From positions 16,402 through 80,401 of the IMG/VR virus record IMGVR_UViG_3300031992_000072: a DNA stretch of 64,000 nt, one strand, 5' to 3'. This DNA is from a virus. Its lineage: Duplodnaviria > Caudoviricetes. This document shows positions 105 to 59,700 of the stretch, piece by piece. The notes under the pieces are model-generated. The model ran no database searches. It saw nothing but the letters and a program-made list of their open reading frames with translations, and had not been told where the DNA came from. A program made the position numbers and the translations under genes. Each line of letters opens with the position of its first letter. Positions within the stretch are counted from its first letter, which is position 1.

Positions 105-2927
105 TTATGTCTCTGTCGAGGACAATAGCAAGCGAGTAGTACGTGCTTCTATAATCGCTTTCTGTTCTAGTCGTTTGGCTCGCTGTGTTGCCTTCTTCTG
201 CACCAGTCTGTATGTTATTTGGCAATCTTCACATCTGCACTGGTTAGATGCTTTACGCTCACACATTATTCCGCAGTCAATGCATTCATAGAAACCTTTG
301 GTGTTCTTTACACACTGATGATTCTTTACCCAGCTTGGAATTTTTGTATTACAATCCAAGCAAGTGTCGCAATCTTTTAAGTTTGCTTTGATGTTTGACA
401 GAGCAATTTCTCCGAAAACACGCCAGAACATTTGCTTATGGGCAGGTTTATTCATTCCTTCGCCTGCAAACAAATGTTTTACAATATATGGATATGCATT
501 TTCCAACGAACCAAATTTTTCTGTTATTCTGTCTGTTATATCTTCGGCAACTATTTCATATCCATTTATCAGTTTTCTTTCATCTGTATAAGCATTGTCT
601 CTTGCCTCAATGATGCTTGCTTTATTTGAATTGTCCATCTCACAGAATAATTCCGGAATTTCAGGACGTGAATTCACACAAGGTGCTGACAAAAGCATCT
701 GCCAGTTAAATCGAGGCAAACCAGAATAATTTAAATTGATATTTCCAATATCATCAAATGCTTTACAGATACGATTCATTGTAGAATTATTTGGATCTGC
801 ATATTTCTTCTTGCGGTTGTGCGGAGTATCTTTACGCCCGTTCTTGCTGAATGCAAAGAACGTTGGCATACGACCATTCTTTCCGCCGCAGGCTCTGCCA
901 ATACGTTTTGCAATTTGTGGAAAGTCTTTATATTCATGGACGACACCAGTCTTTGCTCCGTCTATACGCAGATTGTTTAAATACGTAAGAAGAGCCGCTG
1001 CCACTCTATCCGGGTTGTCTTTATTCCAGACACGAGTAAGCATATTGGATATTTCGCCAATGTTTGAATAATCATGTGACCTTTTCAGTCCTCTGAAAAG
1101 AGAGTCAAAACTGATTGGTTCCGCATTAGCTACTTCAGCATCGTAAAACAACGGTACAACATCAAAAGCTTTGATATTTCTTTCTGCTATATCAACAAAC
1201 AAAGGATCAACTATAACATTTAGCTGATCCCCGTCGACATCGAACTGCAGAATTCTTGATATCATGCTTTTACAACTTGTATGGATAGCGTTTGTGTAAA
1301 ACCAATCATAAACATTTTGATCGTGTGATATTTTCTGTACAGAGTGCTCAAAATAAAGATGCGGAGATCTTAGAACATCAGCTTTATCATGTCTCCTGAA
1401 GATCTTACATGCGACTTCATCTTTTGCCAGCAAACCTTTCGGTTCTTTGATGCCAAGGAACCAATATTCACAAGCCGCATAAAAGTCAGGCAATACAAAA
1501 AGTCTTTTGTTTTCACACTTTATTTTGCCGGACTTTGCATCAAGAAGCATTCTTTTACGAATATCTCTTAAAGTTTCTTTTGTATAAGCTTCACGTAAAA
1601 GCTCTGGATAATATGCCAGCGCAGCCTTGTACGGTTGTTCAGAATTCTTTTCTGCTTTCAACGTTTTAAGCATCGTATCAGGATCTTTTGTAATACCTTC
1701 AATCCTTGAGTGCTCCTCAGCTGTAAACTGTTTTATTTCATCGTCTGTCATTATTTGAAGCGTCTGTATCTGCTGATAATTTGTGTATGTGTCTTTTATA
1801 TAGTCTTCTTCATAGTTTGTTCTGCTGAAATGACAGTTATTTTCTTTGTAAAATTTCTTATATTCATCCCAGTCTTTATAAAGCTTATATAGTTTAAACA
1901 TAGATGTTGTTAAGATAACATTGATTCTTTCTTTTATAAGATCATGTTTTACACCCCATGCATCTTCTATAATCGGATCAACGTTATTAACCTTGCACCA
2001 TTTTATATAATCCCAGCTGCCCAGTAATCCTTTAATCCAGTCACCTCGTACCATAAAGTTGGATTTTGAAACTTCAGGAAGCATCATTCCGCATCCGTCT
2101 GTATGATCAATCTCAACAGTGCGTACTCCAACTTCATATGAATAATCAGGCTTTATATACATCATTCTGTCTGTTACAGGAGCTTTAAATTCTTTGATAA
2201 CGATACAACGATCTATATCAAAGTCTGTCCACTCTTCTGTGGCTGACGCAGCCAGTGCAAGATATGCCATATATTTTGAAACGTTCAGACTTCCTCTTGA
2301 ATTAATTAAGTCCCAGTCCATTCCGCATTCAAGACGTGCATGAACTTTATCCCACATTTCATCCGAGATGAATACAACCTTATCTCTTCTGAGTTGTCCT
2401 GCGCTGGCTGAGAAAAACCTGTAATGTTTATTCACAACCTTATCGCCATTCAACACAGAAAGATAAAATCCGTTTAAAACAAACTGTCTTAATATTTCAA
2501 GATTTTTCCATTTAATCACAATCAAGTCAAGCGTCTTATCAAGATGCTTCAACCCCATTGATCGTGATAATTCACAACAAAATTCTGCAATCTTCTTTCC
2601 TGTTTTCAGATTATCATATGTAACGCCTTCAGGAAACGGATAATCTGCATCTTTAGGATAATAGATTACGGATTTCAGTCTGACAAATCGTGGTTCATTT
2701 TCATGTTCGTGAATTAACTTTTCAAGGGTTTGCTTTATTTCATTTTTTCTTTGAATGACATTTTCCCGTTCTTCTCCTCCTTTAATGTTTTGAGCGTCCA
2801 TTTCGTCTAGCTTGTTCTTTTCTGCGATTATCTGCATATATAAGTCATATTCTTCGTCAGTGAACAAGTCATAGCTGGATAGGGATACCAACCTTATCTG
2901 CTCTTGCAGATATGTTTTTACAGACAA
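105..2927 (-). CDS. YonO/RdRP-like single-subunit two-barrel RNA polymerase (RNAP-1) with C-terminal Cys-rich Zn ribbons
   Basis: Motifs SASAGQLR, TDGCG, VLRSPH and catalytic FDVDGD (about 1227-1241); C-terminal CxxC pairs. Start moved to TTG at 2927, which follows AGGAGG (about 940 aa). Confidence 0.85.
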   Translation of the reverse strand: MSVKTYLQEQIRLVSLSSYDLFTDEEYDLYMQIIAEKNKLDEMDAQNIKGGEERENVIQRKNEIKQTLEKLIHEHENEPRFVRLKSVIYYPKDADYPFPEGVTYDNLKTGKKIAEFCCELSRSMGLKHLDKTLDLIVIKWKNLEILRQFVLNGFYLSVLNGDKVVNKHYRFFSASAGQLRRDKVVFISDEMWDKVHARLECGMDWDLINSRGSLNVSKYMAYLALAASATEEWTDFDIDRCIVIKEFKAPVTDRMMYIKPDYSYEVGVRTVEIDHTDGCGMMLPEVSKSNFMVRGDWIKGLLGSWDYIKWCKVNNVDPIIEDAWGVKHDLIKERINVILTTSMFKLYKLYKDWDEYKKFYKENNCHFSRTNYEEDYIKDTYTNYQQIQTLQIMTDDEIKQFTAEEHSRIEGITKDPDTMLKTLKAEKNSEQPYKAALAYYPELLREAYTKETLRDIRKRMLLDAKSGKIKCENKRLFVLPDFYAACEYWFLGIKEPKGLLAKDEVACKIFRRHDKADVLRSPHLYFEHSVQKISHDQNVYDWFYTNAIHTSCKSMISRILQFDVDGDQLNVIVDPLFVDIAERNIKAFDVVPLFYDAEVANAEPISFDSLFRGLKRSHDYSNIGEISNMLTRVWNKDNPDRVAAALLTYLNNLRIDGAKTGVVHEYKDFPQIAKRIGRACGGKNGRMPTFFAFSKNGRKDTPHNRKKKYADPNNSTMNRICKAFDDIGNINLNYSGLPRFNWQMLLSAPCVNSRPEIPELFCEMDNSNKASIIEARDNAYTDERKLINGYEIVAEDITDRITEKFGSLENAYPYIVKHLFAGEGMNKPAHKQMFWRVFGEIALSNIKANLKDCDTCLDCNTKIPSWVKNHQCVKNTKGFYECIDCGIMCERKASNQCRCEDCQITYRLVQKKATQRAKRLEQKAIIEARTTRLLLSSTET

Positions 2928-2985
2928 ACAGACCAGTCCTCCTTTTATGAATTTATATGATAAATCCCTTACGGGAATTGAATTT

Positions 2986-3017
2986 AAAAGCCGTGCGTTA
3001 TGGGCGTTTCGCACGGC
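2986..3017 (-). terminator. Terminator-like hairpin in the RNAP-1 leader
   Basis: GCCGTGCG-N12-CGCACGGC followed by TTTT on the minus strand, about 60 nt before the start codon. Confidence 0.5.
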
Positions 3018-3264
3018 ACGTAGCCATTCTCCCATGCCCTATGGCTTGCACCCATCAGGTTCGCCTGTCCCTGAACTATGACGAGAAACGAGAATACACC
3101 AAACGGGTTCGAACTTGAGAGGGTGTGCTGACAAAATCCTATTGCTCGCTCGTTTCTTTTTGTTGGAAAGGAGGTGTCACTCACAACACGTTTAACGTCA
3201 CCACACTATAAATGACGGGAGCTTTTCCAGTCAGAGCAATAAGTATTTGCCTCTCAGAAATTAG

Positions 3265-3335
3265 TAGGGCGTCTGAGAATTGAACTCAAATTGATGGTTT
3301 ATAAGACCATTCTTCTACCGTTGAAGTAACGCCCA
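3265..3335 (-). tRNA. trnI: tRNA-Ile(UAU)
   Basis: Cloverleaf folded by hand: D stem CTTC/GAAG, anticodon arm ATGGT-CTTATAA-ACCAT, T arm TTGAG-TTCAATT-CTCAG. U1:U72 mismatch; no encoded CCA. Confidence 0.8.
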
Positions 3336-3645
3336 TCAAAAAGAGCCGCTATAGAACAACGAAAGGAAAATCTATAACGGCTCAGGCAACACGAGAACTC
3401 GTACTGGTCTTGGCTAATGACTCGAAGGATGTTCGCGAGTCTTCACGCACGAGAGAGTTGCTGCTGCATCAGTAAGTATCGTCCCAATACCGCTGTGAAA
3501 TCGTATTTTAAAATTGTGTGAGGTGATGATACATACTCTTTTTATTAAATTGGCGGCATCAGGAGGTGAGCCTGACATTAATGCTTGATCACGCAACCGC
3601 ATATAAAGACTGCATTGGATATCACTGTGTCCTTTTAATGCAGCT

Positions 3646-3697
3646 TCTTTCCTTTACGGTCTATTTCGCTTGACTTCATATTTCGGTACCTAACTAA
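3646..3697 (-). promoter_or_regulatory. Conserved intergenic motif A, copy 1 (candidate phage promoter or RNA motif)
   Basis: GTTAGGTACC..TGAAGTCAAGCGAAATAGACCGTAAAGGA; recurs at 13821, 23461 and 36662. Confidence 0.6.
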
Positions 3698-3760
3698 AAA
3701 AAGGAGCGAGTAAAAATACCCGCTCCTTTGCATAACAAACTAAATATGAAATATTACACA

Positions 3761-3830
3761 AGAAAAGAATGACAATACCCTGGAAACCTGAAAATTTATT
3801 TTCAGGTTTCCTGGGTTTTGTCTTTCTTTT
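3761..3830. repeat. Long imperfect inverted repeat downstream of the RT
   Basis: Perfect core GGAAACCTGAAAAT (3782-3795) / ATTTTCAGGTTTCC (3798-3811); extends with a few mismatches to about 30 bp. Confidence 0.85.
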
Positions 3831-3893
3831 ATTGAATGACATACCTTTGTGTGTCATCACATAACATGTAATGAGTCTCTCGACATTTCTTTG

Positions 3894-5045
3894 TTATGCT
3901 ATAGTTCCATTCAGGTATTTCTTAAACATGCTGCCAACATTTACAGACCATTTTTTATTGTATTGATCAATTATCTTTTTGAAATACTCAGGTTCTATCA
4001 TGCTGTAATAAGATAGTTGTCCTCTGAGATGCGTTACATCTCCTATATCCCAAAAGTTCTTGTTCTTTGTATCAAGGATGAAAGAACAAAGAGCTGCTTT
4101 GAAATAGTTCTTTTTCTTTACCGAAACTGTAATGTCATTATCCTTATTCAGCAACAATCCAAGACACCAGTTTGCTGATTTCCCAGCCTTTTTTCCGAAG
4201 TGCGTCTTTTCGTTTTTGATTTTAAAAGGCGCTCCAAACTCTTTTAATGTATCTTCAATTAGTTTAACAATTTCTTCATAAGGAAAGCATTTTTCTGCGG
4301 ATATATGAATATCATCTGCATATCTGGTGTATATAATTTTCCTATCGGCAAGCATATTAAACAGCTTATGATCGATAGGAATCATCATAATATTTGTGAG
4401 CGTTGGCGAAAGCACTGTACCCTGTGGCAGTCCGCCGTTCAGGAAACCAAGCGATAAAGCTTTTTCTAGTTCGTTTCGTCCTTCTTCAGATTTGCAGATT
4501 TCTGAAAGAGGAAAGATAATCGAACACATTTTCATAACAAATTCCAGCGTTGTACTCGGAAAGAATCCGCTAAAATCTGTTTTCAAAAACCAGTTACTAT
4601 TATTCCTTTGGTGTTTTTTAACACAATCTACGATACATCTGTCTTCAATATATGCAAAAGCAGATGTATGATACAGAACACCACAGTCATTTTTCAGAAA
4701 ACTACTCAGTACTCTTAGTGCGTTCTGTAGTTCGTCGCATGGTGCGTCTATTTGTCTGAAGCCGCCAGTAGTCTTTGGAATTTTAAAGCTGTTATATAAA
4801 CTTTTTCTGTCTTTTTCAAACAAATTACTGTTTAATAAATTAAACTTTCTCAACCAGTTAATCATTCCATTAACATCTATTTTATTTAGAAATGCTTCCG
4901 GAATTTCTTCAAACTTCTTTGTAATAGTAGCACTTGAATAGCTTTTTTCATTTGTAAGTTCGTTTAGAACTATTTTTTCGTTAAATACATCTTCCCAAGT
5001 TAACTGATGAGGTTTGCGATTTTGTTTTACTGTTAAATATATCAT
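3894..5045 (-). CDS. Retron-like reverse transcriptase
   Basis: FKIPKTTGGFRQIDAP, KTDFSGFFPS, GLPQGTVLSP, YTRYADDI and LGLLLN motifs; 383 aa, stand-alone, no maturase or endonuclease extension. Confidence 0.9.
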   Translation of the reverse strand: MIYLTVKQNRKPHQLTWEDVFNEKIVLNELTNEKSYSSATITKKFEEIPEAFLNKIDVNGMINWLRKFNLLNSNLFEKDRKSLYNSFKIPKTTGGFRQIDAPCDELQNALRVLSSFLKNDCGVLYHTSAFAYIEDRCIVDCVKKHQRNNSNWFLKTDFSGFFPSTTLEFVMKMCSIIFPLSEICKSEEGRNELEKALSLGFLNGGLPQGTVLSPTLTNIMMIPIDHKLFNMLADRKIIYTRYADDIHISAEKCFPYEEIVKLIEDTLKEFGAPFKIKNEKTHFGKKAGKSANWCLGLLLNKDNDITVSVKKKNYFKAALCSFILDTKNKNFWDIGDVTHLRGQLSYYSMIEPEYFKKIIDQYNKKWSVNVGSMFKKYLNGTIA

Positions 5046-5058
5046 TTCTTTTGCCTCG

Positions 5059-5330
5059 CACTTAAACTAAATTACTAGAACCAGTCATCTCGCTGCCTCC
5101 TCGAGTCGCCGCGCTTGATTCTTTTCCGTCGCTTCTTCCCGATTTCGGGGTCTTTGTTTAGGTTTCTGACTTGTGATTTGTCCATGTTTTCATTTTCTAG
5201 CCCTTTCGACATCCTACTGGGCACCGTATCCGGACCACCTCGTGCTTCCAGGAAGGCGTTTTTACCGGGCAAAGTGATACAATTCATTACATGAATTGTT
5301 CAACGAGTGAACGTTGATTTTCTTTAAGTG
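5059..5330 (-). ncRNA. Candidate retron msr-msd ncRNA
   Basis: Terminal inverted repeat CACTTAAA (5330-5323) / TTTAAGTG (5066-5059); G immediately after a1; two hairpins at 5300-5317 and 5279-5299; ends 13 nt before the RT ATG. Confidence 0.6.
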
Positions 5331-6002
5331 TTACAAGACAAGTGTTTCGAAATTAAACGGATTCAGTATCATTGCTCTTTCAAGTTTCTCTTCTTTAACA
5401 AAATTAACAAAATTTATCACACCAGCCATTGCGACGCTCCACACAGTCGGCATTACGCAAAGTGATACTTTACATGCGCTGACAGGAACATTCTTTTCAG
5501 CTTCTGCGTGAGTAAAATCCATTGTTTCAAGTAACGCTTGAATATCAGAAGTTTTAGTCCAGTCAGCAGCATAATGCTGCGCGGAAACCAAAGCAGTCCT
5601 GAAATCGAACATCGCCTTAATATTCAGGTTATACTTATTCTCTTCGACAATGCGCTTCCTAAGCTCAATATTGTCAACACAAAGAAAAACATAACCATTC
5701 AGCTTATTTCCATCCCAGCCGTCTCCGTATAATTTAATTGTCTTCGCTGCTTCCGGATTAATCTCAACCCAACGGTCATATACACCTTCAAGTTTTGGTT
5801 TATAAAGATTTTTCGTAGTAAACATCTGATTAGCCAGATTATGTTCTTCAACAACGTCAAAGTCATACAAACTGACATTTTTCAAGCCAAATCTGGCAAG
5901 CAGCTCAGCCACCGTAGAACCGACTGAGCCGCAGCCAATGATATGAATTCTGTCTGTACACTTTTCAGGGTTAAAGAACTCAGCACTTTTTGCTAAATTC
6001 AC
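5331..6002 (-). CDS. ThiF/E1-like adenylating enzyme
   Basis: IIGCGSVG nucleotide-binding loop, DFDVVEEHNLANQ, CVDNIELR, downstream Cys (CKVSLC). GTG start overlaps the JAB stop. Confidence 0.9.
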   Translation of the reverse strand: MNLAKSAEFFNPEKCTDRIHIIGCGSVGSTVAELLARFGLKNVSLYDFDVVEEHNLANQMFTTKNLYKPKLEGVYDRWVEINPEAAKTIKLYGDGWDGNKLNGYVFLCVDNIELRKRIVEENKYNLNIKAMFDFRTALVSAQHYAADWTKTSDIQALLETMDFTHAEAEKNVPVSACKVSLCVMPTVWSVAMAGVINFVNFVKEEKLERAMILNPFNFETLVL

Positions 6003-6772
6003 CAGTCATACCCTCCGTAATACGTTCCGTCCCAATAGTCATTGAGATAGACTGTTTCGTTTTTTTCGTTTTTTTTACTCTTTTTCTGAACCGGATAATA
6101 ATTCTGATAAGGATAAGTTTTCTTTTCCAGCACCAGTTCTTTTGTAGAAGCGATAAAACCAGAAACTGTGTCGTCTTCGTCTTCAATATCAATCACTACA
6201 TCGTTTTTATCATAGAACATATTATTATCCAGATCATAAAGATAAGTATTAATATCTCCGCTCTTATTCCAAATCTGGAAAATATAGAAACCAGACTTAC
6301 CCATACTTCTGACAACATCTGCCTGGTTTTGAAGGTCTACTCCTGATGCTGCTGTAGACATCTTTACATGAGAATGCGCCTGAAAATGCATATGTTCAGC
6401 TTCATCATCTGTAAGAGAATTGAAGAACTCAAGAGTATCATTATCTTCAGTGTCAACCTTACTGCCATTTACATACTGCTTACAGATTTTTACATCATAT
6501 ACATAATAGAGCGTATCAGACAGTTTCTTGACAAGCCCATACCAGGCGACCTCAGTGTCATAATAATTGACCAAGGCTTCCATACGAACATATGCCTTCT
6601 GAGAATAAACGATAGTAATCTTTTCTTTTGCTTTCATTGAAAAGTCTGTAGAAAATGTGAACTTTGTATCATTCATATTTTCCTTAAACTTTTCCCATTC
6701 TTTTCTAAAGTTTGCAAAGAATGATTCAAGCATTTTATTTTCAACTTCTTCTGTTATTTTAATCGGCTTCAT
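5999..6772 (-). CDS. JAB/JAMM metallopeptidase
   Basis: Glu in EVAWYG plus an exact HxH-x7-S-x2-D motif (HSHVKMSTAASGVD). Confidence 0.85.
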   Translation of the reverse strand: MKPIKITEEVENKMLESFFANFRKEWEKFKENMNDTKFTFSTDFSMKAKEKITIVYSQKAYVRMEALVNYYDTEVAWYGLVKKLSDTLYYVYDVKICKQYVNGSKVDTEDNDTLEFFNSLTDDEAEHMHFQAHSHVKMSTAASGVDLQNQADVVRSMGKSGFYIFQIWNKSGDINTYLYDLDNNMFYDKNDVVIDIEDEDDTVSGFIASTKELVLEKKTYPYQNYYPVQKKSKKNEKNETVYLNDYWDGTYYGGYDW

Positions 6773-8229
6773 TCTTCTTTCTCCTTGTCAACCAAATAAA
6801 TCAACGCTTCTTCAGGAGTCATATCTACCCCATCTTTACGGCGAAGAACTTTCTCACGGCTGGTCAGAAGCCAACCAAGAAACGGTCTGAAGTTCTGTTC
6901 AGTTTCTTCAAGATTAACAGAACCTGCGGAAGCACAGCAATATTCAACCGCAACAATATAATTACGATTCAACATTGCATCAATAATCCTGTCGCCAAAC
7001 TGACCGAAACAGGAATAATTCTTAAAATGAGGATTCGGAATATATTCTTTCAATTCCGGATCAGCAACTACATAATCATACGTTCTTGTTGACGTACAAT
7101 TGCAACTATCAAAGTCAAGCGTATAATTACTGCAAATTTTAATCGCAAATTCAGGGCTTTCACAGAAAATGCTGTTCAACAAAATCTTCCTGTTTTCACG
7201 GTCTTTGAATGCATCGAGCAGGTTATTCTGCATATACTTGCCGTCAAAGATATGTCCTGCTTTTGCAAAGCTTTCCCATGCATCCTCATTATAATTATTC
7301 AGCAAAGTACCAACCGCAAATGTAAGCTTGCTTCCCTGGATCTTCAGATTAAACAGTTGCTTATTTGTGCTGAGATATTCAACAAATTCATCTTCAAGAT
7401 CATTCACATTTTCAGTTGCTTTCAGTCCTTCATAAAGAACAATAAGTTCCTTCAGATGCTTAATTGCGTTTGTATATTCAGTCTTTGTCGATTCTACATA
7501 CCGCCTCTGATCTGATACATCCCTGAAAGCATGATTGACTTTACCTTCATGCATTGCCTTCAGAAGTGTACCAAGCATCATGCGTCTGAAGTCCATTGTA
7601 TAAGGAGCTACCGCATTCTTGATGCTCTGAACAAACGCAAGCTTATCATTCTTTGCGAGCGTTGTAATGATCGAATAATCTTTCTGTTCAAGAGGCTTAT
7701 ACTTAAACAGATTCGGCATCATAAGACTAAGGAACGAAATAAGAAGATGATAATATTTTATATCCTTGGATCTGATAAAGATTGCCGCAATATTCTTTTC
7801 TTTATGCCGAGCAGCAATACAATCCACATCAGCTTTTTCTTTCAGAAAAGCACCAATCTTTTCAATAATAACATAATCATGAAGCGCCAAATCAGACTTA
7901 ACATTATCATAATTATGCGTATATGTATAATAGCAAAACATCGGAACGTCTGTAAGAGATTCTTCTCTATCAAACAGATTCAATACTGCTGAACTTTCTT
8001 CTGGATACGAACAATAAACACCACTAATACCTTTATAAGGATTGATTCTTTCTTTCAGAAGAGCAATCCCAAGACATGTCAACGAGTAATCAGGCTCGTT
8101 TTCCAGCCTGGAAATAGTGTCAATATACTCCTGTGGAATAGGATCGATAGGATTCTGAATATATTCTCTGAACATTTCTTTTGTTTCTCCGTTTCTTTTA
8201 TTAAAATTAGGGGAGCTGATATATTTCAA
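6769..8229 (-). CDS. Large protein with a C-terminal prokaryotic E2-like domain
   Basis: PNPHFKNYSCFG motif (His..Cys) near the C-terminus; central coiled coil; lies between the Ubl and JAB genes. Confidence 0.6.
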   Translation of the reverse strand: MKYISSPNFNKRNGETKEMFREYIQNPIDPIPQEYIDTISRLENEPDYSLTCLGIALLKERINPYKGISGVYCSYPEESSAVLNLFDREESLTDVPMFCYYTYTHNYDNVKSDLALHDYVIIEKIGAFLKEKADVDCIAARHKEKNIAAIFIRSKDIKYYHLLISFLSLMMPNLFKYKPLEQKDYSIITTLAKNDKLAFVQSIKNAVAPYTMDFRRMMLGTLLKAMHEGKVNHAFRDVSDQRRYVESTKTEYTNAIKHLKELIVLYEGLKATENVNDLEDEFVEYLSTNKQLFNLKIQGSKLTFAVGTLLNNYNEDAWESFAKAGHIFDGKYMQNNLLDAFKDRENRKILLNSIFCESPEFAIKICSNYTLDFDSCNCTSTRTYDYVVADPELKEYIPNPHFKNYSCFGQFGDRIIDAMLNRNYIVAVEYCCASAGSVNLEETEQNFRPFLGWLLTSREKVLRRKDGVDMTPEEALIYLVDKEKEE

Positions 8230-8253
8230 TCAGCTCCCCGTATATTACGGAGA

Positions 8254-8862
8254 TTATTTAGCAATAATCAGCTTATCAATCTCCGCTTCCTTTTCCGTGA
8301 TTTCCTTCAGCAGATCAGGAATTTCCTTTTCAATTTGATTCAGGTCAAGCAGTGCAGAACCCATAATGTCCTTCACCGCAGCCAGCTTATCATCGACATC
8401 CTCGTCGAGCAGGACGGTCACAGTGGCCTTGCCGCCGTCATTGGTATAGGTGCCGAAGCAGACACCATATTCATTGATAGAGCCACTGCCACTGCAGGTC
8501 TTCACCTTAAACAGAGCGTCACCGTCTTCATCAACGATCTTCAGCGCTTCGGGAGCATACTTTTCTACACGCTCCCAGTCTTCCCGAGCCACATCAGATA
8601 CAACAACAGCAGAAGCACCGGAAATTTCAACATGAGCAGCATTGTCGATCTTCACGATGGAAGACAGACGGCACTCCTTGTCGACGCCCCACTCACGCAG
8701 AGTCTTGTCCATTCCGGCAGGGTCAATACGAGTACCATCGATACAGTTGGTGGCTACAGAATAGTCCACGTCGAAAGCATCGAAGATCTCACGGATAGTG
8801 GTTCCTTCATCAAACAGGTCACTCTTGCGTCCAGCGGCAGTGGTAACATAAACTTTAATCAT
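8254..8862 (-). CDS. Ubiquitin-like (beta-grasp) protein fused to a C-terminal extension
   Basis: N-terminal 75 aa MIKVYV..TTIREIF..DG..MDKTLREWGV..RLSSIVKIDNA has a Ubl-like pattern; first gene of the E2-JAB-E1 operon. Confidence 0.65.
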   Translation of the reverse strand: MIKVYVTTAAGRKSDLFDEGTTIREIFDAFDVDYSVATNCIDGTRIDPAGMDKTLREWGVDKECRLSSIVKIDNAAHVEISGASAVVVSDVAREDWERVEKYAPEALKIVDEDGDALFKVKTCSGSGSINEYGVCFGTYTNDGGKATVTVLLDEDVDDKLAAVKDIMGSALLDLNQIEKEIPDLLKEITEKEAEIDKLIIAK

Positions 8863-29184: not shown

Positions 29185-32100
29185 TTAGTCGATCTTAAGA
29201 TCGTCTTCCGTGGCAGAGAGAGCAGCTTCTGCTTCGTCTGCACAGCTGATTTCAACGGCAAGACCGCCGAAGATCAACCGATACGCAGACCAGAGCTTAT
29301 TCCTGATGAAGTCGGTCTTCCCGTCCATCTTCAGGTACTTCTCATCGCAGTACGCGAACATCTGCCAGGTGATCACGTCGTATGCGTCTTCCAGCGTCTT
29401 TCCGTGAGCGACCGCGAAGGCTTCGATCTCTGCAAGAGCGTTTGCTCTCCATGCCATTTCGAAGGTAACTTCGTCGTCGTCTTCGCTGACATTGTTCTTG
29501 TCCTTATTGCTATCATCGTCCAGCCAGACAGCACGGTCACGGTCCAGCCTTCTGGCAAGGCTGTTAAACAGACCCTGATTCGGACGGAACCTTTCACCAT
29601 TGATGGTTACGAGTTCTCCGTTTCCTTCCCGGATCAGTCCGGTCAGACCACGATATCCGCATTCCTGATTGAACATGATCTTCTTGTAGTCGAACTGTCC
29701 TTCAGGCGCATCGTCGATCTTTACGTCTCTCCGAGCATTCTCTGCATACAGAGCGAAGAGCTTGTTCAGCGTCTTATACCTGTGGAGCTCGTTGAGCTTG
29801 GACGGATCAGCCAGTTCATCCAGATGGTTCTTGGGAGTCTGAAGCAGACTGTCGTTCAGATAGAGGCTATTGCTCTTATCAAGCGAGAACCTGTCGATCA
29901 TTACAGGTTTTCCGTCCGGTCCAAGCTGAACGATTCCGTCATCGTCCGTAAGGACAACGTACCTGGTTTCCTTGTAGTACGTGTTTGCTTCCCGAGCAGT
30001 TGCGAAGAACTTTTTCTTACCGTTGTGCTTTACATACCAGATGTTGCCTTCATCAACGGCATCTTTGTATACCTTCGCCCACGGCTGAAGCATACGAGCA
30101 CAGATAGAGCTTTCTTCAGGCTCTTCAATTTCCGCTCCGCCATGCTTGCTTGCGTCTACCAGAACGTTCGCAGCGAACTTCTTGAAGTCTACGCCGCGAT
30201 GAGTGACGGGCATCCTCTTGGTATACCAGCGTTTGTCCACTTCGTCCTGTTCTGTGAGCAGACCGTTCAGCAGAGCATTGAGCCCATAGACGGTAAGCCC
30301 AAGCTCATTCATATGGGTCAGACCCGCGAAGTACTCTCGAAGAACCTCTTCGGTAATCACAGTCTTCTCCGGGTTGGGCGTTTCCCAGATAATCAGTCTG
30401 TTCCATACCTTGAGTGTTTCTTTGACAGCCTCGATGATCGCAGGATCATCGCTGGTGTTGGCGTGGTCTCCATCAAAGTCCATGTCCATGGCGACTGCTA
30501 CGTCGTCATGGCAGTTCAGGAAGATTGTATATTCTTCGTTCTTAATGAACTTTCTGTAATTGCTCGGAATGGATACATTCTCCAGAACACGGACACTGTT
30601 CGGATGAACCACAGGGCTACGCCACATGGCGAGCTCTCCGTGCTTCACGGTCGGCAGATGGATCTGACCAGCCTTCAGCATTCCGTTGTCGTTCTTCCCA
30701 TGCCACGCGGCAAGGATGAAGAACGGATCGGGACAGACAAAGCTGTAGAAGCAGTCCTTCAGAATCTTTCCCGAAAACGCTTCGTTGATGTTCTGCTCCA
30801 TCTTATGTTCAATATGTTCTCTGAAAGAGGGAACGTTCACGAGCTCAGGATACTGTACGGCAACGCTGCCCCATTCTCTTCCGAGCATCTTTGTAGCGCT
30901 TTCAACTGTGTGATTGTCGTTCAGACGCTTGATGGTCTTTGCAGCCATCTTTGCAACCTGTTCATCGGTTGCTTCGCACAGGCACTGCGTTACCTGATAC
31001 GAGATGTTCTTCTTTTCCTTGGGATGAGTCTTGACTACGGTGCCAAGGGTGATCTTTTCACCCATAGCCGTACACCAGTCTTCAAAGGTCTTGTAGGCCT
31101 TGTTCTTGCCAATGCTGGTCTTGATGACAGACTCGTCCACGAAGAAGACGATATCATCGATATCCCGTCCGTCAGGTGTCTTGGTTACGCCAATGGACTT
31201 CAGGTAGGCCTGAGCATTCACATTCTTGCAACCCAGACCTTTCAGCTTCACGGGGTTGCCCCTGTAGCTGTAGAACGACGTGTCGTTCTGGAAGTCGTTC
31301 AGAATCTTGTCTGCCTTTTCAGCAGACATTCCGTTGTAAACCATCTGGTTGTGTAGTTCCATCTGAACCTTCTTCGTCATGCTGATGACGAAGAATCCGT
31401 CAGAGAACTTCACAGGAACAAGATCGTTATCCCTGTCTTCGGCATGACCGTCAAGATACAACTTCGTTGTGTTTGCCACAACGTTCTTGACTACAGTCGG
31501 ATAGATGCAGAACATCTCCGGCTTGAACGGAATTTCGATCTGGTGGCTGTACACTGCGATCAGACCTACGGTATAAGCGATGTTCTTGGCAGCAGTGTTC
31601 TGCCATTCATCATCGACTCCGCCATTAGTGTATTCCCGCATCTTGTCATAGATACTTTCTTTTACTGCAATGGTCTTGCACCATTTCGCAGCGTTCGTGC
31701 CGTGTCCGAAGATACGGTACTTGACGTTGTTCACGAGAAGACCGTTCTCGATCACGTCCAGCCATGCATCGAGCAGCCTCTCGGCACGGATGATACCTTC
31801 GAGGTCTTCCTCGTTCTTCGGCTCTGCGATGCGGCTAACTACGTGGATGACAGCATCTTTACCGCCAATTTCCATTGCCTTATCTTCTACAAGACTGACG
31901 GACTTGCGGATCGTGTCATAGACCCACAGGTTTTCAGACGTAGGATCGTTGTTCAGCTGAGCACGAATGAACTCCATGCTTTTGTACGTCTTTACGGTTT
32001 CAGGCTTACAGATCTTCCGCAGGGCGCGGACAACCTTGATGGCGGTTTTCTCACCGATGCCCTTGATTGCCGTAAGCTTCTCGATATTGTTGGTGGCTAC

Positions 32101-32436
32101 TGCGTTCCGCAGCTCACCACAGTCAATCTTGATGACAGCCTCGATCATCGGCTTATTGATCTTTTCCTTGATCATCAGCCCAATGGCGTTGATCTGCCAC
32201 TGCTTTTCGTCCAACAGTGTGTAGCAGTCATAGTCCCAGTTGTGAGCGTCAAGGACGACTCTGGTTCCATCGATAACGGACTCCAGAAGGCACTGATAAT
32301 CGCCCTTCTTGGCGTCTTCAAAGTAGCCGTAAGCCACCTTGAGATCGTCGCGTTCTACAAAGTGTACTTTTCCTGCGTTCGGGCCTTTCTTGATGATGCA
32401 AGAAACCCTGAACAGAATGTTAATAAGTTTCGCCAT
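29185..32436 (-). CDS. Second YonO/RdRP-like two-barrel RNA polymerase (RNAP-2) with N-terminal helix-hairpin-helix
   Basis: FSDGFF, WRSPVVHP and MDFDGD (about 30466-30480); LTAIKGIGEKTA HhH near residue 120; AGGAGG RBS; C-ending codon bias. Confidence 0.8.
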   Translation of the reverse strand: MAKLINILFRVSCIIKKGPNAGKVHFVERDDLKVAYGYFEDAKKGDYQCLLESVIDGTRVVLDAHNWDYDCYTLLDEKQWQINAIGLMIKEKINKPMIEAVIKIDCGELRNAVATNNIEKLTAIKGIGEKTAIKVVRALRKICKPETVKTYKSMEFIRAQLNNDPTSENLWVYDTIRKSVSLVEDKAMEIGGKDAVIHVVSRIAEPKNEEDLEGIIRAERLLDAWLDVIENGLLVNNVKYRIFGHGTNAAKWCKTIAVKESIYDKMREYTNGGVDDEWQNTAAKNIAYTVGLIAVYSHQIEIPFKPEMFCIYPTVVKNVVANTTKLYLDGHAEDRDNDLVPVKFSDGFFVISMTKKVQMELHNQMVYNGMSAEKADKILNDFQNDTSFYSYRGNPVKLKGLGCKNVNAQAYLKSIGVTKTPDGRDIDDIVFFVDESVIKTSIGKNKAYKTFEDWCTAMGEKITLGTVVKTHPKEKKNISYQVTQCLCEATDEQVAKMAAKTIKRLNDNHTVESATKMLGREWGSVAVQYPELVNVPSFREHIEHKMEQNINEAFSGKILKDCFYSFVCPDPFFILAAWHGKNDNGMLKAGQIHLPTVKHGELAMWRSPVVHPNSVRVLENVSIPSNYRKFIKNEEYTIFLNCHDDVAVAMDMDFDGDHANTSDDPAIIEAVKETLKVWNRLIIWETPNPEKTVITEEVLREYFAGLTHMNELGLTVYGLNALLNGLLTEQDEVDKRWYTKRMPVTHRGVDFKKFAANVLVDASKHGGAEIEEPEESSICARMLQPWAKVYKDAVDEGNIWYVKHNGKKKFFATAREANTYYKETRYVVLTDDDGIVQLGPDGKPVMIDRFSLDKSNSLYLNDSLLQTPKNHLDELADPSKLNELHRYKTLNKLFALYAENARRDVKIDDAPEGQFDYKKIMFNQECGYRGLTGLIREGNGELVTINGERFRPNQGLFNSLARRLDRDRAVWLDDDSNKDKNNVSEDDDEVTFEMAWRANALAEIEAFAVAHGKTLEDAYDVITWQMFAYCDEKYLKMDGKTDFIRNKLWSAYRLIFGGLAVEISCADEAEAALSATEDDLKID

Positions 32437-50767: not shown

Positions 50768-53700
50768 ATGAGTAATCCAACAATACAAATTGATCTCGAA
50801 GTTAATGGCGAAAAAGCATTACAATCAATAAGCAATTTTAAAAAAGATGCAGATGAAAAACTTTCTTCTATTGGGAAAATTGAAAAATCGTTTGCTCCGG
50901 CTGTTGAACAGTTAAATTCTGATAAATCATTATTAGGTTCTGGTGAAGCTTTTGATTCGTTTGCTAACTCAATAATGACTGCAAACAATGCAATTGCTCA
51001 AATGAGAAAAACGTTGAATAGTTTTTCTTCTTCTATTGATCTTGGAAACATTACAGACGGTATGACACGAATGTTTGAATCTGCATACCGCACAATGTTA
51101 TCAAGCATAAAAACATTAAATGCAGAAGTTGATAGAGGATTGTCAAAAGGTCCAAAAAACATTAACGCATATACGCAAGCTGAAAAATCAATAAAACTTG
51201 CCTCTGTGACTGGTCAGTCTGCTTCTGCCGACATGATTAGAATGTTAAGAATTGTCAACAACGCGCATCGTGAAACAGGATTAAATGCAGATCAGCTTGG
51301 CGAAATCATGCCAGCTCTTTCTTCTATTGTTAGAGCTAAAACGGACGAATATAGAAAAGCAACAAAATCTACTCCAAGATTAAGTGAATTAGCAAACTTT
51401 ATTGCAAATGAGGATATATTTAAAAATACAGTTGGATCATCTATTAAAGGATATAATCCTACGCAACAGCAACTTGCACAAATTGCAAAAGGAGCAATTG
51501 TTGCAACAAGAAGCAATGCATATAGAGATAATTTAGAGATTCTTAAAGCGGCTGGACTTAAAGGCAGCGAGTATCAATATGTAACAGATCAAATGCCTGA
51601 AGTATTTAAAAAAGCATATATTAATTACGGAAGACCGAATAGTTCAAAAGAAACAAATATTATCGCTAAAAATATAGGTAAACAAGCCGTAGATGAAGAA
51701 GTTTACAAAAAATTTATGCAGCTTGTTCGGAACGGAAACCAGCAAGCTATTAAGATTGGACAGGATGTAGGACTTGTACGTGCTAGAAACGGTTCTTATC
51801 AGTTTACTGGTAATGCAAGAAAAGCACAATTCGATACAATGGCTGGTATTGTTGCTCAAGTTGCTGGTGAAGCAAAGAGTTCTTTACCCTATCATTACAT
51901 TCAAAGAAACGATCAAACACAACAACAGAAACTATTAAACAGAAACAATAATATTTTTAACGATGCTCTTGAACTAATGGAAATTTTAAGCGGACAATCT
52001 GGACTTGATCCAAATGCTTATGGATACGTTCCGTTTGGTACAACAAGAGAATCTTTAAAGAATTATAGAGACTTGTTTGGTTTTGTTGGCTCTGGGAAAA
52101 ACTATAGACGCTTCAATAAAAATGCTCCTAAAATTCAAACGCTTGGTGTTGCTAATCAGTATGTTGTTCCTAAAACACATTTGGATCAAAATGGAAATCT
52201 TGTATGGAGAGATCCATCTTGGCAAAAGACAAATGGTGTTCAAGAGTCGAAAGATGATCAGTTTGCAACAATAGGTAACAGTGCTCTTACATATTTGCTT
52301 GGAATGCATGGGCACAATACATACGGATATGGGAGAACTGACGAAGGAGAAGCAAATTATCAAACACCAAAGGTTGTCAGAATAAGCACGTCACATTTAT
52401 ATAAACAAATAAGAGAAAAAAATGGGACAAGGATGATTGTAGATCCTGAAAAACAGACAGAAGCTGATCGCATTAATCGTCTTTTTGCTAGAAAAGAAAC
52501 AGCTCACTACACTCGTCCTGGCGAAAAAGAAAACGATGATAATGAATATATTGCTGCTATGGGTGATGCAGAATCACTTACAATGATTCGTAAAAAGGAT
52601 TATGATGCTATAGTAAGTAATTTTGCTAAATATGGTATGGCAAATCCATTTGATAACATGAACACAGGCGGTTTGTTTATATCTGGTGATTATAAAAATG
52701 CGGCAAAACAAATTGACTTGTCCAAGAAAAAGGCAACGCCAGGATTTCGTTATGCAGAATTAGGATATGCAAAATCTCCTTCTGCTGCTTTGGTAGACTT
52801 TGAGCAGTTATATGAATATCTTGGAATACCAAAAAACAATCAATTTATGCGTCAAAGTCAGCGTCTGGATGGTCTTGCTCTTTTTGATCCAAGCGTTCTT
52901 GGTGTCAATGCGCAGATGCGTGCTGGTATTGTTGGAAAATTTATGGGTCAAGCAACGGACTGGCGAAAATTATTATACGAATCTGGCATATTAGAAAGTG
53001 CATACAAAAAAGCAACAACTGGAGACAAAAGAAATTCAGGATTAATTGTTAAAAATGGAAGCAACGGTGTTCCTCAGGATTATTCTTTTTATATGCCTAT
53101 GGTTGGCTTAGAAAAAGAAGAAGCGCAATCATATATTGATAGAATAAATGAACTTCAAAGAAAAGCCAACAATGGACCTATTTCTGAAGATGAAAAAAAT
53201 GAGCTTGAACGAATCAGAAACACATATTTTTATGATATCATGGATAAAAAATATGATGCTCTGATTGCCGAATCTACGATAAAGAACAACGATAAGTATA
53301 GAATTATTTCAAAAAATGCTTTTACAAATAAAGATGGTTTATTTCGTGGAGAAAAATGGGTAAAAGATCGCGGAGATGGAACTGTTGAATTATCAGCAGA
53401 CCAACAACGCAGATATTTTGAAGCAGCTGTTAAAGAATCTGGTGGCTATTGGATTAACAAAACTGGATATGACTTTCGTACTGATAAAGATTTTATACCT
53501 GAATCTCTTGCAACAGCTATGGGTCTTGAAGTTGGGGATTTAAAAGATCAATCTAATGAAAATTATAACGAATACATTCATAAACTTGAGACAGATAAAA
53601 ATGCAAGAATAAACTTTTTAAATACAACAGCTTACGGAAGACGTCTTGTCCAAGAAGGGTTATATGACAGTGATCTTGCAGATAGGTTAATCAGATCACA

Positions 53701-56700
53701 CATTAATGATTATGCTTCTAAGCAACAACAAGGACACTTGTTTCTTCCTCAGTATGGGATAGATAATCTTTTAACTGGTGTTTTGCCTGGTTCTATATTT
53801 GGAAATATTTTTGAACAAGGTTTTGATGTAAAGGTTTCAGATAATAATGATTATAGAAAATTGTTTTCGTATCAAGGCGATGAAGATCGTGTATTTATGA
53901 AAACGTTAAACGGAAAACAACAAGAAGCGTTACGAAATAATGCAATAGCTGCAAAGCTTATGTTATCTCGTATGCCAGCTGGCCCTGGCGAATATGGGAT
54001 AGGCGTACAAAACTTGGGTGACATAGAAGCTATGCAGAAAGCTTTGGATGCACTTGGTGTTGATTATTCTGATACTATATTTACAGACCCAAGTCTTCAA
54101 TATAAATTAATGACAGGTGACTACGATGGAGATACTGCTTGGGTTATCAGAGGTTTAAACGACAATCAATTTGCTCGAATGCAACAAATTCAAGATTATG
54201 TACAACGAGCAAGAGAGAAAATAATGTCACAAATGGACACAGCTTCTCCAGAAGAAAAAAAAAGACTTGAAAATGACTTACAAGCTTTTACTAATTTTGG
54301 CGCTGATCACTTTACCGCTCAAATTGGTATGGGTCAAGCTACAGCTGCAATAAGAAACTCTCTCGCAGACTTGTCCGATAACGATCCTGATAAATGGATA
54401 GCGATAGCAGAAGCTATCGACGCATATGATAAAAATACTTCTGAAGCTATGAAAGAAGGCAAGATTGTAAATCTTGGTGTGCACGCTTCAAAACAAGCAA
54501 TGGAAGGTGGATTGTTCAGAAGGTTTATCAAACAGATTAACGCTTACGGGCAAGGCTCTGAAAACGCTCATCCAGACTTGTTTGCTACAAGACTTCCAGA
54601 AATTCAAGATACAGGAACATTATTCGATATTGTTTCTAACTTTAGAAATAAAAGAAATGGTAGCGATGTTGGTAAACGGTTTGGTAGTGATCTTGATAGT
54701 TGGTTGTTTGAACAGTATGGTTATTCAAATTCTTTTGAAGCGCAAGCTGCCAGAGCTTATGCTGATATGTTTAAAAACATAGAAGGTGGCATTCGTTTAA
54801 CTTCAAAAGACGATATTTCAAATGCGAGATTAATTGCGGTAAGATGGCAAAATTCTCTTGAAAAAGATAGAAAAGCAAACAGAGATCCTGAAGCTTTGGC
54901 AGAAGAACAACATCGTTTAAATCAGTTTGTCAAAAGACTTCACCAAGTAGAAACATCCGGTTCTTTGCATGAAGATTTTTTAGCACAAACAGAAGAACTG
55001 GAAAATGAAAGAACACGACTTATTAAATCTGGTGTTACTGAAGATGATAAAAGAATTATTGGTTTAGATAAGAAAATTGGATTATATAAAACTTTAACAT
55101 CTGATCTTTCTCTTCCTTTCCAAATCGCAAAAGAAAACTGGGAAACAGAACAAAAGGAAATGGACGAAGAAGTTCGCAAAAGATATGAAGCAAATCTTGC
55201 ATTAGCTAAGACAAATAATGTAAATATGACCAACGGTGTTATGGCTATGCTTGGACCTGCTTTGTCTACAGATTTAGTTAAAGCGGGCAAAATTAACTTT
55301 TCAGATGTAACTCCTTGGTTGTATGAAAATCTTGCTAAAGATCAATTTAGACTTAAAGGCATTGAAGGTTTTGAATTTAATGAGAATGGCGAAATGGTCA
55401 GAGACAAACTGCCAAAGAAAACTGTTGACTTTTTCCCATGGCCTCATAATGTTGAAGGTATTAAAAGTCAAAAAGCAGAAATTCTTGCAAGAGAAATGGA
55501 CACTCGCCATGAATGGGTCCCGGGTTATTCAGAATCTATTGCGACAATAATGGGTAAAATTCGACATGAATCTTTCGAAGAAGCATTGTTGCAATACGCA
55601 AAAGGCGAAACTGCTGATATCGCAAAGATTTATGAGGGAATGTTAACTGCTGCAGATAGCAGTACAAGCTCGCCATTTAGAAAATTAGGGTACTCTCTTA
55701 AAAGGGATGAAAAAACAGGAGTATATACGGTAGAAGGTGCAGATAATTCAATCAACGAAGGTATAAGAGGAGCCTTAGGAACATGGAATGAAAAGACTCA
55801 AAAATATGAAGGCGGCTCTCTTTCGAATTTGTATAATTATATTACTTCTAACGGATATCGTGTTGCCAACATAGAAGGTTTTAACATTAATAAAAAAGGC
55901 GAAAAAATGAATTCTAGGGAAACCGTACCAGATGATTACTTTGGTCGTGGTACAGTTCTTAGAACAAAGATAAAAAGCCCAACAGGAGAAGAAATCGATA
56001 AAGTTGGTACATTTGCTCCTGATTTAATTCTTCAGGGTAAAGATGGAAAGTACCATATGTTAGACTACAAATCTGGAGAACAAGGTGCTTATGATAGTCT
56101 TTACCAAATGATGATTTATGCAGCTGATATTCAGGAAAAAGTTCAGCAATTCAGAAATTCCGGACAAAGAGCAGAAGCTAAAAAACTTGGTTGGGATCAA
56201 TATCTTGACAATAAAGGAAATTTAAAATTTGGTAGTGTTTTTGGTTTTGATACGCAAGCCGGAAAAGGATATAAATTTTCATTTAGCCAAGATGCCGCAC
56301 AAGAATTATCTTCGAGATACAAAGAATCTATTCAGTCAAAATTGTTTGCAAGCGATGAAGAACTTGTTTCTGCTCAAAGACGCCTTGTTGCAGAAGTTGC
56401 TAAAAAGTACGGAATCGAACAAGAACATATCCAAAAGAAATCTACAGAAGAAGCAGTTCGTGGATTAACAAAAGATGATGCAAGAGGAAGTTGGTATTCT
56501 AATTATCTTGCCGATAAATTCAATAAAGACGAAGATACGTTAAGAGAAATTTCAAGCACAGGATATGCCGCAATTCGTCGCTATGGCGATAGAGAAGTTG
56601 GTGGATACAGCAAATATGCATCTTCTCGTAGAATGCTTGATGAAATGATTGATCCTGAAACGATAGATCAATTAATAGGACAAGCAAAAGAAAAAGGAGA

Positions 56701-59700
56701 TTCTGGGGCCATATTATCATTGCTTGAGTATCAACAAAAAATTAATAGAGCCAGAGAGACACTTAATCAAGGCGAACTTCTTGCTGCACAAAATTCTTTT
56801 AAGGATATTAACTCTTATATACAAGAACAATTTTTTGGCGTAAAAGAGTCAAAACCTTTAGCGGCTTTTAATGCTGTTAGAAAGCGTATTTTAGACGCTG
56901 AATCTATTCGTGAAGGCTTAAAAGAAAATAAAGATGTTTATGATGCTGTTAATCAAAAATGGCTCAATGATGAATATCGTGATGCGTATATTGAAGCTGG
57001 TAAAGATAAAGAAATAGCATTAGAAACATTTGATTCATTATTGCCAGATTTTAAAAACAGAGCCATAAAAGAAAATAATAAAAATTTACAAAAACTAATT
57101 TCAAATAACAATGAACCAACTGCTGAAGATGAAATTGAACAATATTATCAAAATAGATATGATGCTCTTGAGCAATATGTTAAACAACAAGAGCATGATC
57201 TTGATGAATACAGTAAAAAGCTTGCACAAAAAGACGATAAAGGACAACTTGTTTTAAAACACGGATCAAAAGCACGACAAATATTTGAAGAACTTAGAGA
57301 TAACAGTCACGATAATTTAATTGAAGCTTTTAATGCACTTAACAATACAAGCGCATTAGAAGAAGTTGCACGAACAGAATACGAAAAATCTATCGGCCTT
57401 GTTGGTGGAGAACGTGCTAAAAAAAGATCAGATAAACAAAGAGAATATTTAGATAAAATAAAAAAAGAATACGACGAAACTCGTGATGAAAATTTAAATC
57501 CTTTGCGCCAAGAATTATATGAAGCAGAACTTTCTGGAGATACTGAAAAATATAATAAAATACGAAAGAAACTTGATAAGATTTATAAAGATACTCCTCG
57601 TCGTAGAAAAAAGATGCAAGAATATGCTCAATTCGAAGAAGAGCAAAGAATGCAAAAAGAAATTGAAGACACAGAAGATCAGTTAAAAAGGGGTTCAATA
57701 GATAGATTATATTCCGGAAAAGGAATGTCTGAAGAAGATAGTATAAATGCAATATTCTTGCAGCGAAAAAAACAAGCACAAGAATATGCAGCAACTTTAG
57801 ACAAAGATGCAAGAGAAGAATTTTGGAAAACACATCAAGACGACACTCTTAAAGCGCAGATTAAACAAGAAATAACCGAAAGCAAGGAATTACAAGATCT
57901 TCAACGAGAAAATGCACGTCTTAATCTTGTTGATCAGGGTGATGTCCGTGTTCGTAATATGCGTCATCAATTTGATCGCCAAAACAGGCAACAGCAAATG
58001 CGCTATTCTCGTTCTCGTATTGTTCAGGCTATGTATGGGGCTGAACAACGCAGAGACGCTAAAGAACAAGAAATTCAAAATATTGAAGATCAACGTAAAT
58101 CCATACAAAGACAACAGAATTATTACGCAAAAGAACTTGAACTTGCAAAAAAATCAGGCGATGAAGAACGTATAAACAAAGCTCAATTTAATTATGACCA
58201 AACGGCACAACAACTTCAAAATTTAGACAAAGCCTCTAAAGAAGCTAAAGATCAGCTTGATCAATTAAATAACGGTGCTCAGACTGCTCAGGCTGTTTTC
58301 GGAGCATTTGGTCAAACGTTGGGCATGGTTGCTTCTCGTCTTGGTCGTCGCCTTTTCCAAAAGACTCTTCAAGAGACAAAACAGTTTATAAAACAATTTG
58401 ATGCTTCAATGAACGAAATCCAAACCATTACCCTTAAGTCAGATAAAGAAATGCAAGGAATTCGTTCTCAAACAATAAACAAAGCTCTTGGATTAAGGAC
58501 GTCCGTCTCTAACGTTTCTAATGTTGAAGCAGCACTTTACCGTCAGGGTTTAAGTGACCAGGAAGTTTCTGCTCGTACAGATTCTATTATAAAATTTGCC
58601 ACTGTTACCAAGCTTAATGTGCAAGAAGCAACAAAGATTATTACTACTGCTCTTCAAAACGACTTAGTAGCTTCTGCCAATGAAGCAATGGATGCATTGG
58701 TTGCTTTAGGCGATAACGCTGCAACAACTGCGGCTGAAATTGGTAAAGGTATGCAAAAAGCTGCAGCATCCGCTAAAGTTGCAGGCGTATCTTATGCAGA
58801 ACTTACCGCTCTTTTAACTATTGGCACATCTGATACGCAATTAAGCGGAACGCAAGTAGGTACTGCATTACAAACAGTGTTCTCTCGTATGAGAAGAATG
58901 TCTGTCAGTGGATGGACGGCTGATCAGAACGGCAAAAAAACAACTGCGAGTGACGCAGAAGCAGCATTAGCCTCTGTTGGTGTAGACCTCTGGGATAATA
59001 AAGCTATTGGCAAGATGCGCACTGCTTATGATGTGTTGCTTGACTTGTCTAAGGTATGGCAAAACTTAAGTGACGCTCAGAAGAACATTGTCATGAATGC
59101 AATGGCTGGCACTCGTCAAACAAATGTGTTCTCTACATTAATGGAGGGTATGTCTGAAGATAGCGGTGCTACGCTTGAAAAGTACTTAGGACTTGCTGAA
59201 GGTTCCGAAGGTATTACACAATCCAAGTATGAAATTGCTATGCAAAGTCTATCAGCCGCTATGGACAAGTTAAAAAGCTCGTGGGATGCGGTTGTAGAAA
59301 GTTTTACAAACGCTGGTGCAATTACTGGCGCTATTGATCTTATTTCTGGATTCTTACAGAAAATAGCTGATGTTGCATCTAGCGATACTGCTGGTCAAAT
59401 AGGATTGGTTACTGGTGCTATTATCTCTGGAATAGCTGGAATAGCTGCTACATGTATAGCAGCAAAAACAGCCGTTGCGCCCATTGCTAGTCTTATAGGT
59501 TTACTAATTGGTGGCGGAATAGCGATTGCTTCTGGATTAACTTTAAGTTCTTTGTTTGAAGGAAAATCTGAAGACGAACTTCTTGCTGAACAAAATCAAC
59601 AAGCATTAAGCAATATATCTTCTACTAGAAAGATTAATGATGCTACAGTTTCTGATGCGAACAAAGCAATCGATAAAGTTAAAGAGGCAGGTAAAGAATG

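Follow-up and report, generated by a model that had tools for sequence, protein, structure and literature searches.

We find that positions 5059-5330, on the minus strand of a 64,000-nt stretch of gut phage DNA (the window; positions 16,402 to 80,401 of the IMG/VR virus record IMGVR_UViG_3300031992_000072, Duplodnaviria; Caudoviricetes), are a conserved retron-type RNA gene. It is only one of two template cassettes placed around a single reverse transcriptase (RT), and relatives carry up to three. The long unstructured interior of this cassette, its inferred template, evolves unusually fast, and the whole unit is linked to a putative ubiquitin-like conjugation operon, a combination that we found described nowhere in the literature searched. 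That cDNA is made from these cassettes is inferred.

The window is part of an 80-kb record that is about 69 % complete and encodes a terminase and a portal protein. A megablast search of positions 3000-8300 against a phage collection gave no match. Reading the minus strand, we found the first arm of the closing helix (a1, CACTTAAA) at 5330-5323, starting 1 nt after the stop codon of the upstream E1 gene, followed by an unpaired G at 5322. A 6-bp hairpin, TCAACG/CGTTGA, lies at 5317-5312/5305-5300 and a 9-bp hairpin, ACAATTCAT/ATGAATTGT with loop GTA, at 5299-5291/5287-5279. About 211 nt follow, ending in G5067 and the second arm (a2, TTTAAGTG) at 5066-5059, with 13 nt to the RT start codon at 5045; a2 abuts the RT ribosome-binding site (GAGG, 5056-5053). 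The initial annotation, which had read a retron-like msr-msd here, thus placed each motif correctly and its observation holds. A repeat search lists the a1/a2 pair, extended to 14 nt at 86 %, and the 9-bp hairpin. In this single sequence, however, the 8-nt repeat is not above chance because two other perfect 8-nt inverted repeats lie in the same 600 nt, and the whole element folds at only z = −1.2. A scan of positions 3000-7000 against Rfam at E up to 1 found no RNA family at the element, only a tRNA and chance hits on the downstream hairpin. The significance of the frame therefore comes from comparison with relatives.

The adjacent gene (3894-5045, minus strand) encodes a 383-aa RT with a YADD motif that belongs to the retron clade. 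The best 25 PADLOC hits are retron RT models, led by RT_II-A at 2e-49. Among NCBIfam models retron_St85 scores best at 3.7e-53, although its 181 bits are below the curated cutoff of 235, compared to 2.7e-20 for group II intron RT and 3.5e-12 for Drt2. Thirteen of 14 solved-structure hits are retron-type RTs, the last being a group II intron maturase. Aligned to the Ec83 RT, the retron signatures NAxxH and VTG are degenerate and read CVKKH and CLG. H145 of region X and G296 of region Y, the residues that Mestre et al. call the most conserved (PMC7736814), are aligned and invariant in the family, while N, A, V and T are replaced. The RT has 4516 relatives at E <= 1e-20 and more than 547 loci in viral contigs encode one. 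A scan of genome contigs gave only two loci, both in metagenome-assembled genomes.

The frame is conserved across about 150 related phage loci, and the upstream regions of about 80 loci share one layout: a1, G, hairpin 1, hairpin 2, a box with consensus AGTAACAAnTTGyCGGG, 160-320 variable nt, AT(T/G)TAG, a2 and a short gap to the RT start. A search for the best helix with no other condition recovers a1 followed by G, and a2 preceded by (T)AG, in most loci. With a2 defined only by a TAG near the RT start, and so independently of a1, its exact complement plus G is found upstream in the same locus in 40 of 63 cases, compared to 0.9 % of 3614 cross-locus pairs, with 19 distinct a1 heptamers. A second count, selected by pairing, gives 14 distinct, perfectly paired 7-nt arm pairs. 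Covariation of a1/a2, whose absence had been named beforehand as evidence against a retron, is thus present. The G after a1, the candidate branching (priming) G, is invariant in 36 of 36 aligned cassettes. The two hairpins, where a retron msr has one to three, have a covariation score of 0.668, compared to 0.223 for shuffles (0 of 500 reach it) and at most 0.282 when the partners are slid. Thirteen of 14 pairs change on both sides: all 6 pairs of hairpin 1 show compensatory changes, and 7 of 8 pairs of hairpin 2 change on both sides. In the window the single-stranded box, conserved in two alignments, is ATCACTTTGCCCGG at 5265-5278; it is likely the end of the msr, where reverse transcription would stop, a role that is inferred. 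At the other end ATTTAG (5072-5067), ending in the G opposed to G5322, would provide the first templated bases.

The region between these elements (5068-5264) is the inferred template, or msd equivalent. Over 58 non-redundant cassettes the central region is 159-322 nt long and folds no better than dinucleotide shuffles (median z = −0.31). The window copy has z = +1.5 as RNA, and its predicted 198-nt cDNA has z = +0.65. The weak pairing noted in the initial annotation is therefore a property of the family, and the long stable stem-loop of 10-50 bp that is part of the usual definition of a retron ncRNA (PMC7736814) is absent from this cassette. In one cluster a third small hairpin and a 10-bp long-range helix bracket the variable part, but across the family a closing helix is only a weak tendency (median z = −0.68; 5/58 at p < 0.05). 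The purine richness, also noted, is true of this copy (A 0.37, G 0.30; purine 0.67) but the family median is 0.52; what is shared is T-poverty (median T 0.19). A 70-aa ORF exists at 5075-5287. Stop-free frames are no commoner than in shuffles (4/58 sense and 3/58 antisense at p < 0.05), and ORF position and length are not conserved, so this ORF is chance, and an objection to the retron reading based on its translation is unlikely to apply.

The interior of the cassette is hypervariable. In closely related pairs the 5′ domain is 95-100 % identical while the interior diverges far more than third codon positions of the adjacent RT gene. The borders are sharp: everything up to about 30 nt past the box is constant, as are the last 25-35 nt before TAG, while the interior is full of substitutions and changes in A-run length. 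Long A runs of up to 22 nt occur in the interiors of four of the related loci (L017, L035, L037 and L079), with length differences between near-identical phages. In a cluster of 16 phages interior diversity is 0.234, compared to 0.119 at 4-fold sites of the RT. In close pairs the interior diverges 4.2-fold more than RT third positions, and a second cluster gives 2.8-fold. Variable columns split 57 transitions to 55 transversions, compared to 39:6 at 4-fold sites. Part of the excess over 4-fold sites could come from codon-usage constraint on those sites, from recombination or from residual misalignment. The stretch downstream of the RT, first taken as a neutral comparator, was withdrawn because it is itself a second cassette. 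In the window's own lineage, contigs from two independent DNA runs are mostly 95-99 % alike over the operon. They align up to about 5090-5096 and from about 5247-5265, and run into unlike sequence in between, placing the hypervariable core at about 5097-5246. The window's interior matches nothing else in the window or in about 150 loci. Conserved ends around a variable interior are as expected if the ends serve priming and termination.

Most loci have a very stable structure just downstream of the RT, which the initial annotation had missed. In the window this second cassette (3730-3899, minus strand) is framed like a retron RNA and looks canonical. Its first arm, GCATAACAAA, lies at 3899-3890, overlapping the RT stop codon, and is followed by G3889, a 9-bp hairpin with an ATGTTAT apex at 3874-3854, a long hairpin at about 3834-3759, ATTTAG ending at G3740 and the second arm, TTTGTTATGC, at 3739-3730, the exact complement of the first over 10 nt. 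The element folds at z = −9.26. Helices of this kind with flanking Gs score at least 20 in 34 of 56 loci, compared to 3 of 56 shuffles. The window-type element is conserved, with co-varying arms and small hairpin, in the related loci L004, L006, L007, L008, L010, L012, L014, L015 and L017.

To ask whether the same design is repeated, we built a covariance model only from upstream 5′ domains. In the window it finds just the upstream copy, so that the two msr domains differ here and may not be served equally; a similarity between them that we had seen by eye was not supported, only the frame and the hairpin-2 apex being shared. In other clades the model finds two or three copies per locus, all on the RT strand; by our count 23 loci have three copies and about 15 have two. 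Almost every copy has its own distinct a1/a2, G and (T)AG, and the arms co-vary. The window's closest relatives (L004 at 2465 and L015 at 2404) have a further cassette in tandem upstream, between E1 and cassette 1, where the window has only one. In the 16-phage cluster the interior diversity of cassettes 1, 2 and 3 is 0.237, 0.184 and 0.104, while the 5′ domains have 0.011-0.038.

The gene context is also conserved. Using tblastn with the window's proteins we found an E1 homologue upstream on the RT strand in 77 of 82 loci, a JAB homologue in 75 and the E2-like protein in 39, the 3-kb flank limiting detection of the latter. The most distant locus (L001, 47 % RT identity) keeps the order Ubl, E2-like, JAB, E1, RT. 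In the window, on the minus strand, the E1-like adenylating enzyme (5331-6002, 223 aa) is ThiF by Pfam (2.4e-18) and matches PADLOC E1-E2 models. The JAB/JAMM peptidase candidate (5999-6772, 257 aa) has no HMM hit and rests on a JAMM motif read by eye (H-S-H, seven residues, S-G-V-D). The E2-like protein (6772-8175, 468 aa counted from Met19 of the ORF) has an invariant N-x-H-x5-C-x-G motif (N381, H383, C389, G391), and the C-terminal domain of its model (pLDDT 91) resembles RWD domains at Z 6.6-7.2, which is suggestive only; a Foldseek search with the whole model found nothing significant. The first gene (8254-8862) is predicted to encode a Ubl fusion, with a ubiquitin/SUMO-like beta-grasp domain (residues 1-73) ending at an invariant D-N-A-A and followed by a second domain (model pLDDT 87; SUMO/ubiquitin matches with target TM 0.6-0.71 and 2.1-2.6 Å rmsd). 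ESM Atlas searches for the E2-like and Ubl proteins were uninformative. The Ubl fusion is the best conserved protein of the unit, with 57-88 % identity among the homologues found compared to 24-69 % for the E2-like protein. By analogy with CBASS we considered the RT's own C-terminus as the conjugated Ubl, but the termini are not conserved (30 end in R, 20 in A and 6 in G) and this was rejected.

No terminator lies between E1 and the RT, and an intrinsic terminator (3700-3729; 13-bp stem followed by a T run) directly follows the second arm of cassette 2. A strong terminator-like hairpin (8210-8239, minus strand; 11 bp, 7 GC) lies between the Ubl and E2-like genes and could attenuate transcription and set the ratio of Ubl to the enzymes. 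Many clades carry an extra 269-aa gene with no family match between E1 and cassette 1 (for instance at 1328-2137, plus strand, of locus L084), which the window lacks. Beyond the unit lies a tRNA gene (3265-3335, minus strand; Rfam 59.9 bits; anticodon loop CUUAUAA) and then a 976-aa protein (105-3035, minus strand), one of two paralogues of phrog_8308 in the window, the other being at 29185-32436 (minus strand). The first hits Pfam RdRP (PF05183, 6.9e-14), so it may be a two-barrel RNA polymerase of the kind reported for crAss-like phages; it follows the RT unit in the window's subfamily only (12/82 loci). Elsewhere in the window a single open frame of at least 4411 aa (50768-64000, plus strand) runs off the end.

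Contigs from public runs give a weak hint of expression. One metatranscriptome contig covers 4993-5302 at depth 116, compared to 2-6 for neighbouring operon genes in the same run, and carries one substitution and one insertion inside the interior; its start at 4993 lies next to adapter sequence. Contig depth cannot rank genes and DNA may be present in the library, so this is no more than a hint that the region is abundant. RNA contigs give no cover over cassette 2, and one RNA-library run, whose high-depth contigs cover 3000-3620, gives none over cassette 1, but absence of cover in contigs proves nothing.

Taken together, these results lead us to propose, with fair confidence, that the a1/a2 helix brings the unpaired G5322 opposite G5067, and that the RT, which would bind the two msr hairpins, uses the 2′-OH of G5322 to start cDNA synthesis at G5067 and copies the template towards the box at 5265-5278. 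The product would be a branched, largely single-stranded, pyrimidine-rich DNA of up to about 200 nt. The same RT would also serve cassette 2 with its classical long-hairpin template, and cassettes and RT would form one transcription unit with the Ubl-fusion, E2-like, JAB and E1 genes, which occupy the place that effector genes hold in bacterial retrons. The analysis itself establishes the RNA architecture and its conservation, the clade of the RT, the lack of structure and hypervariability of the template region and the gene linkage, whereas the synthesis of branched cDNA, its extent and its function are inferred, the priming step from the conserved priming geometry. The interpretation in the initial annotation is thus partly supported: the retron-type frame upstream of a retron-clade RT and the absence of the usual long hairpin hold, but the purine bias is particular to this copy, and the second cassette, the hypervariability and the operon were missed. 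Nothing here speaks specifically for its proposal of a decoy for ssDNA sensors or SSB.

Our working hypothesis is that the RT-DNAs act as sensor or scaffold molecules for the Ubl-conjugation module in a phage-host or phage-phage conflict. The fast-evolving template would reflect either an arms race over its sequence or RT errors fed back into the template by recombination of the cDNA with its own gene, and the conserved ends would be the parts needed for priming, termination or annealing. It is conceivable, although unlikely on present evidence, that these phages carry a self-diversifying single-stranded DNA system in which one RT copies a small array of cassettes into long unstructured DNAs. 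Through write-back of copying errors or through an arms race each phage lineage would have its own ssDNA repertoire, working with the conjugation machine as its sensors, scaffolds or even substrates in counter-defence or in competition between phages.

Alternatively, cassette 1 may be a structured RNA that binds the RT but works only as RNA, for example by controlling RT translation or as a decayed paralogue that titrates the RT, with only the hairpin-type cassette being reverse-transcribed. In the MFE fold the a1/a2 helix extends towards the RT ribosome-binding site, in the window's subfamily a2 lies 7-13 nt from the start codon, the interior lacks the msd stem, a canonical cassette exists downstream and the RNA may be abundant and intact in one RNA library, the last being weak evidence. 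We consider this unlikely because the priming geometry (both Gs and TAG) is conserved in every cassette, including those whose a2 lies 20-30 nt from the start codon. In addition, in most clades all the cassettes are of this type, some are not next to any start codon, and a pure regulator would not need a 160-320 nt spacer held to a set length and composition.

The remaining alternatives are very unlikely, and each of the rival readings, the RNA-only one included, fails at least one direct test. The template repeat of a diversity-generating retroelement, or of another mutagenic homing system that rewrites a target gene, would account for an RT next to an A-rich, hypervariable non-coding template, but the interior has no second copy in the incomplete 80-kb record, the window or about 150 related loci, the variable part is the template itself, the RT is far closer to retron RTs than to other classes, and the A-richness argues against A-directed mutagenesis acting on it. 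A DRT2-like mechanism, in which rolling-circle reverse transcription builds a repetitive gene with an endless reading frame, would fit the 70-aa frame running across the interior of this copy, but open frames occur at the chance rate and the Drt2 model scores 46 bits against a cutoff of 390. A gene for the 70-aa protein itself, present as an ORF in T-poor sequence that has few stop codons, is opposed by its lack of conservation and of any family hit, by evolution faster than 4-fold sites with indels and by a start codon inside a co-varying RNA hairpin. Miniature inverted-repeat transposable elements, suggested by short terminal inverted repeats, a length of 170-370 nt and several copies per locus, are dismissed because the arms differ between copies but stay complementary, indicating selection on pairing rather than on a transposase site, and because the copies are always on the RT strand, always flank the RT and are found nowhere else in the 64-kb window.

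Retrons are known as bacterial anti-phage systems with one RNA template per RT, a hairpin-shaped DNA product and a toxin-like effector. The family described here is large (more than 500 loci in IMG/VR) and departs from that picture in being encoded by the virus, in having several templates per RT, in having long, unstructured templates that evolve faster than silent sites and in having a putative ubiquitin-like conjugation machine as its partner module. If the cDNAs are made they would be, to our knowledge, the longest natural retron DNAs, and largely single-stranded, which is of direct interest for retron-based genome editing. The linkage also offers a testable connection between reverse transcription and ubiquitin-like conjugation.

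The closest systems are the bacterial retrons, especially types I-A and II-A (Ec78/Ec83, Ec86, Sen2/St85), which share the RT clade, an ncRNA on the RT strand framed by a1/a2 with two opposed unpaired Gs, hairpins in the msr, the long-hairpin msd seen here in cassette 2 and partner genes in one operon. The present system differs in being encoded by phages of about 100-160 kb, in having two to three cassettes per RT placed on both sides of it, in having a main cassette with a 160-320 nt unstructured, hypervariable template in place of a stem-loop, in the reduction of NAxxH and VTG to xxxxH and xxG and in its partners, which are in none of the 13 described types (PMC7736814) nor in the 2026 SPIRE survey (PMC13712802). 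Engineered retron arrays (multitrons, bioRxiv 10.1101/2023.07.17.549397) also have one RT with several msr-msd cassettes but are man-made, and our literature search found no natural multi-cassette retron, nor a paper linking an RT to a ubiquitin-like operon. Diversity-generating retroelements share a phage RT beside an A-rich non-coding template with localised hypervariation, whereas here there is no variable-repeat target, the template itself varies, the RT is of the retron clade and the priming frame is of retron type. Bil and type II CBASS (Cap2/Cap3) ubiquitin-like conjugation modules similarly combine E1 (ThiF), a JAB peptidase, a beta-grasp Ubl and an E2-like protein with an invariant Cys in one operon, the JAB peptidase being here a candidate read from its motif and the E2 fold being only suggested (Z about 7 to RWD domains). 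In contrast to those modules, the operon described here is phage-encoded, its Ubl ends in D-N-A-A and is fused to a second domain, and it is linked to an RT and its RNA cassettes.
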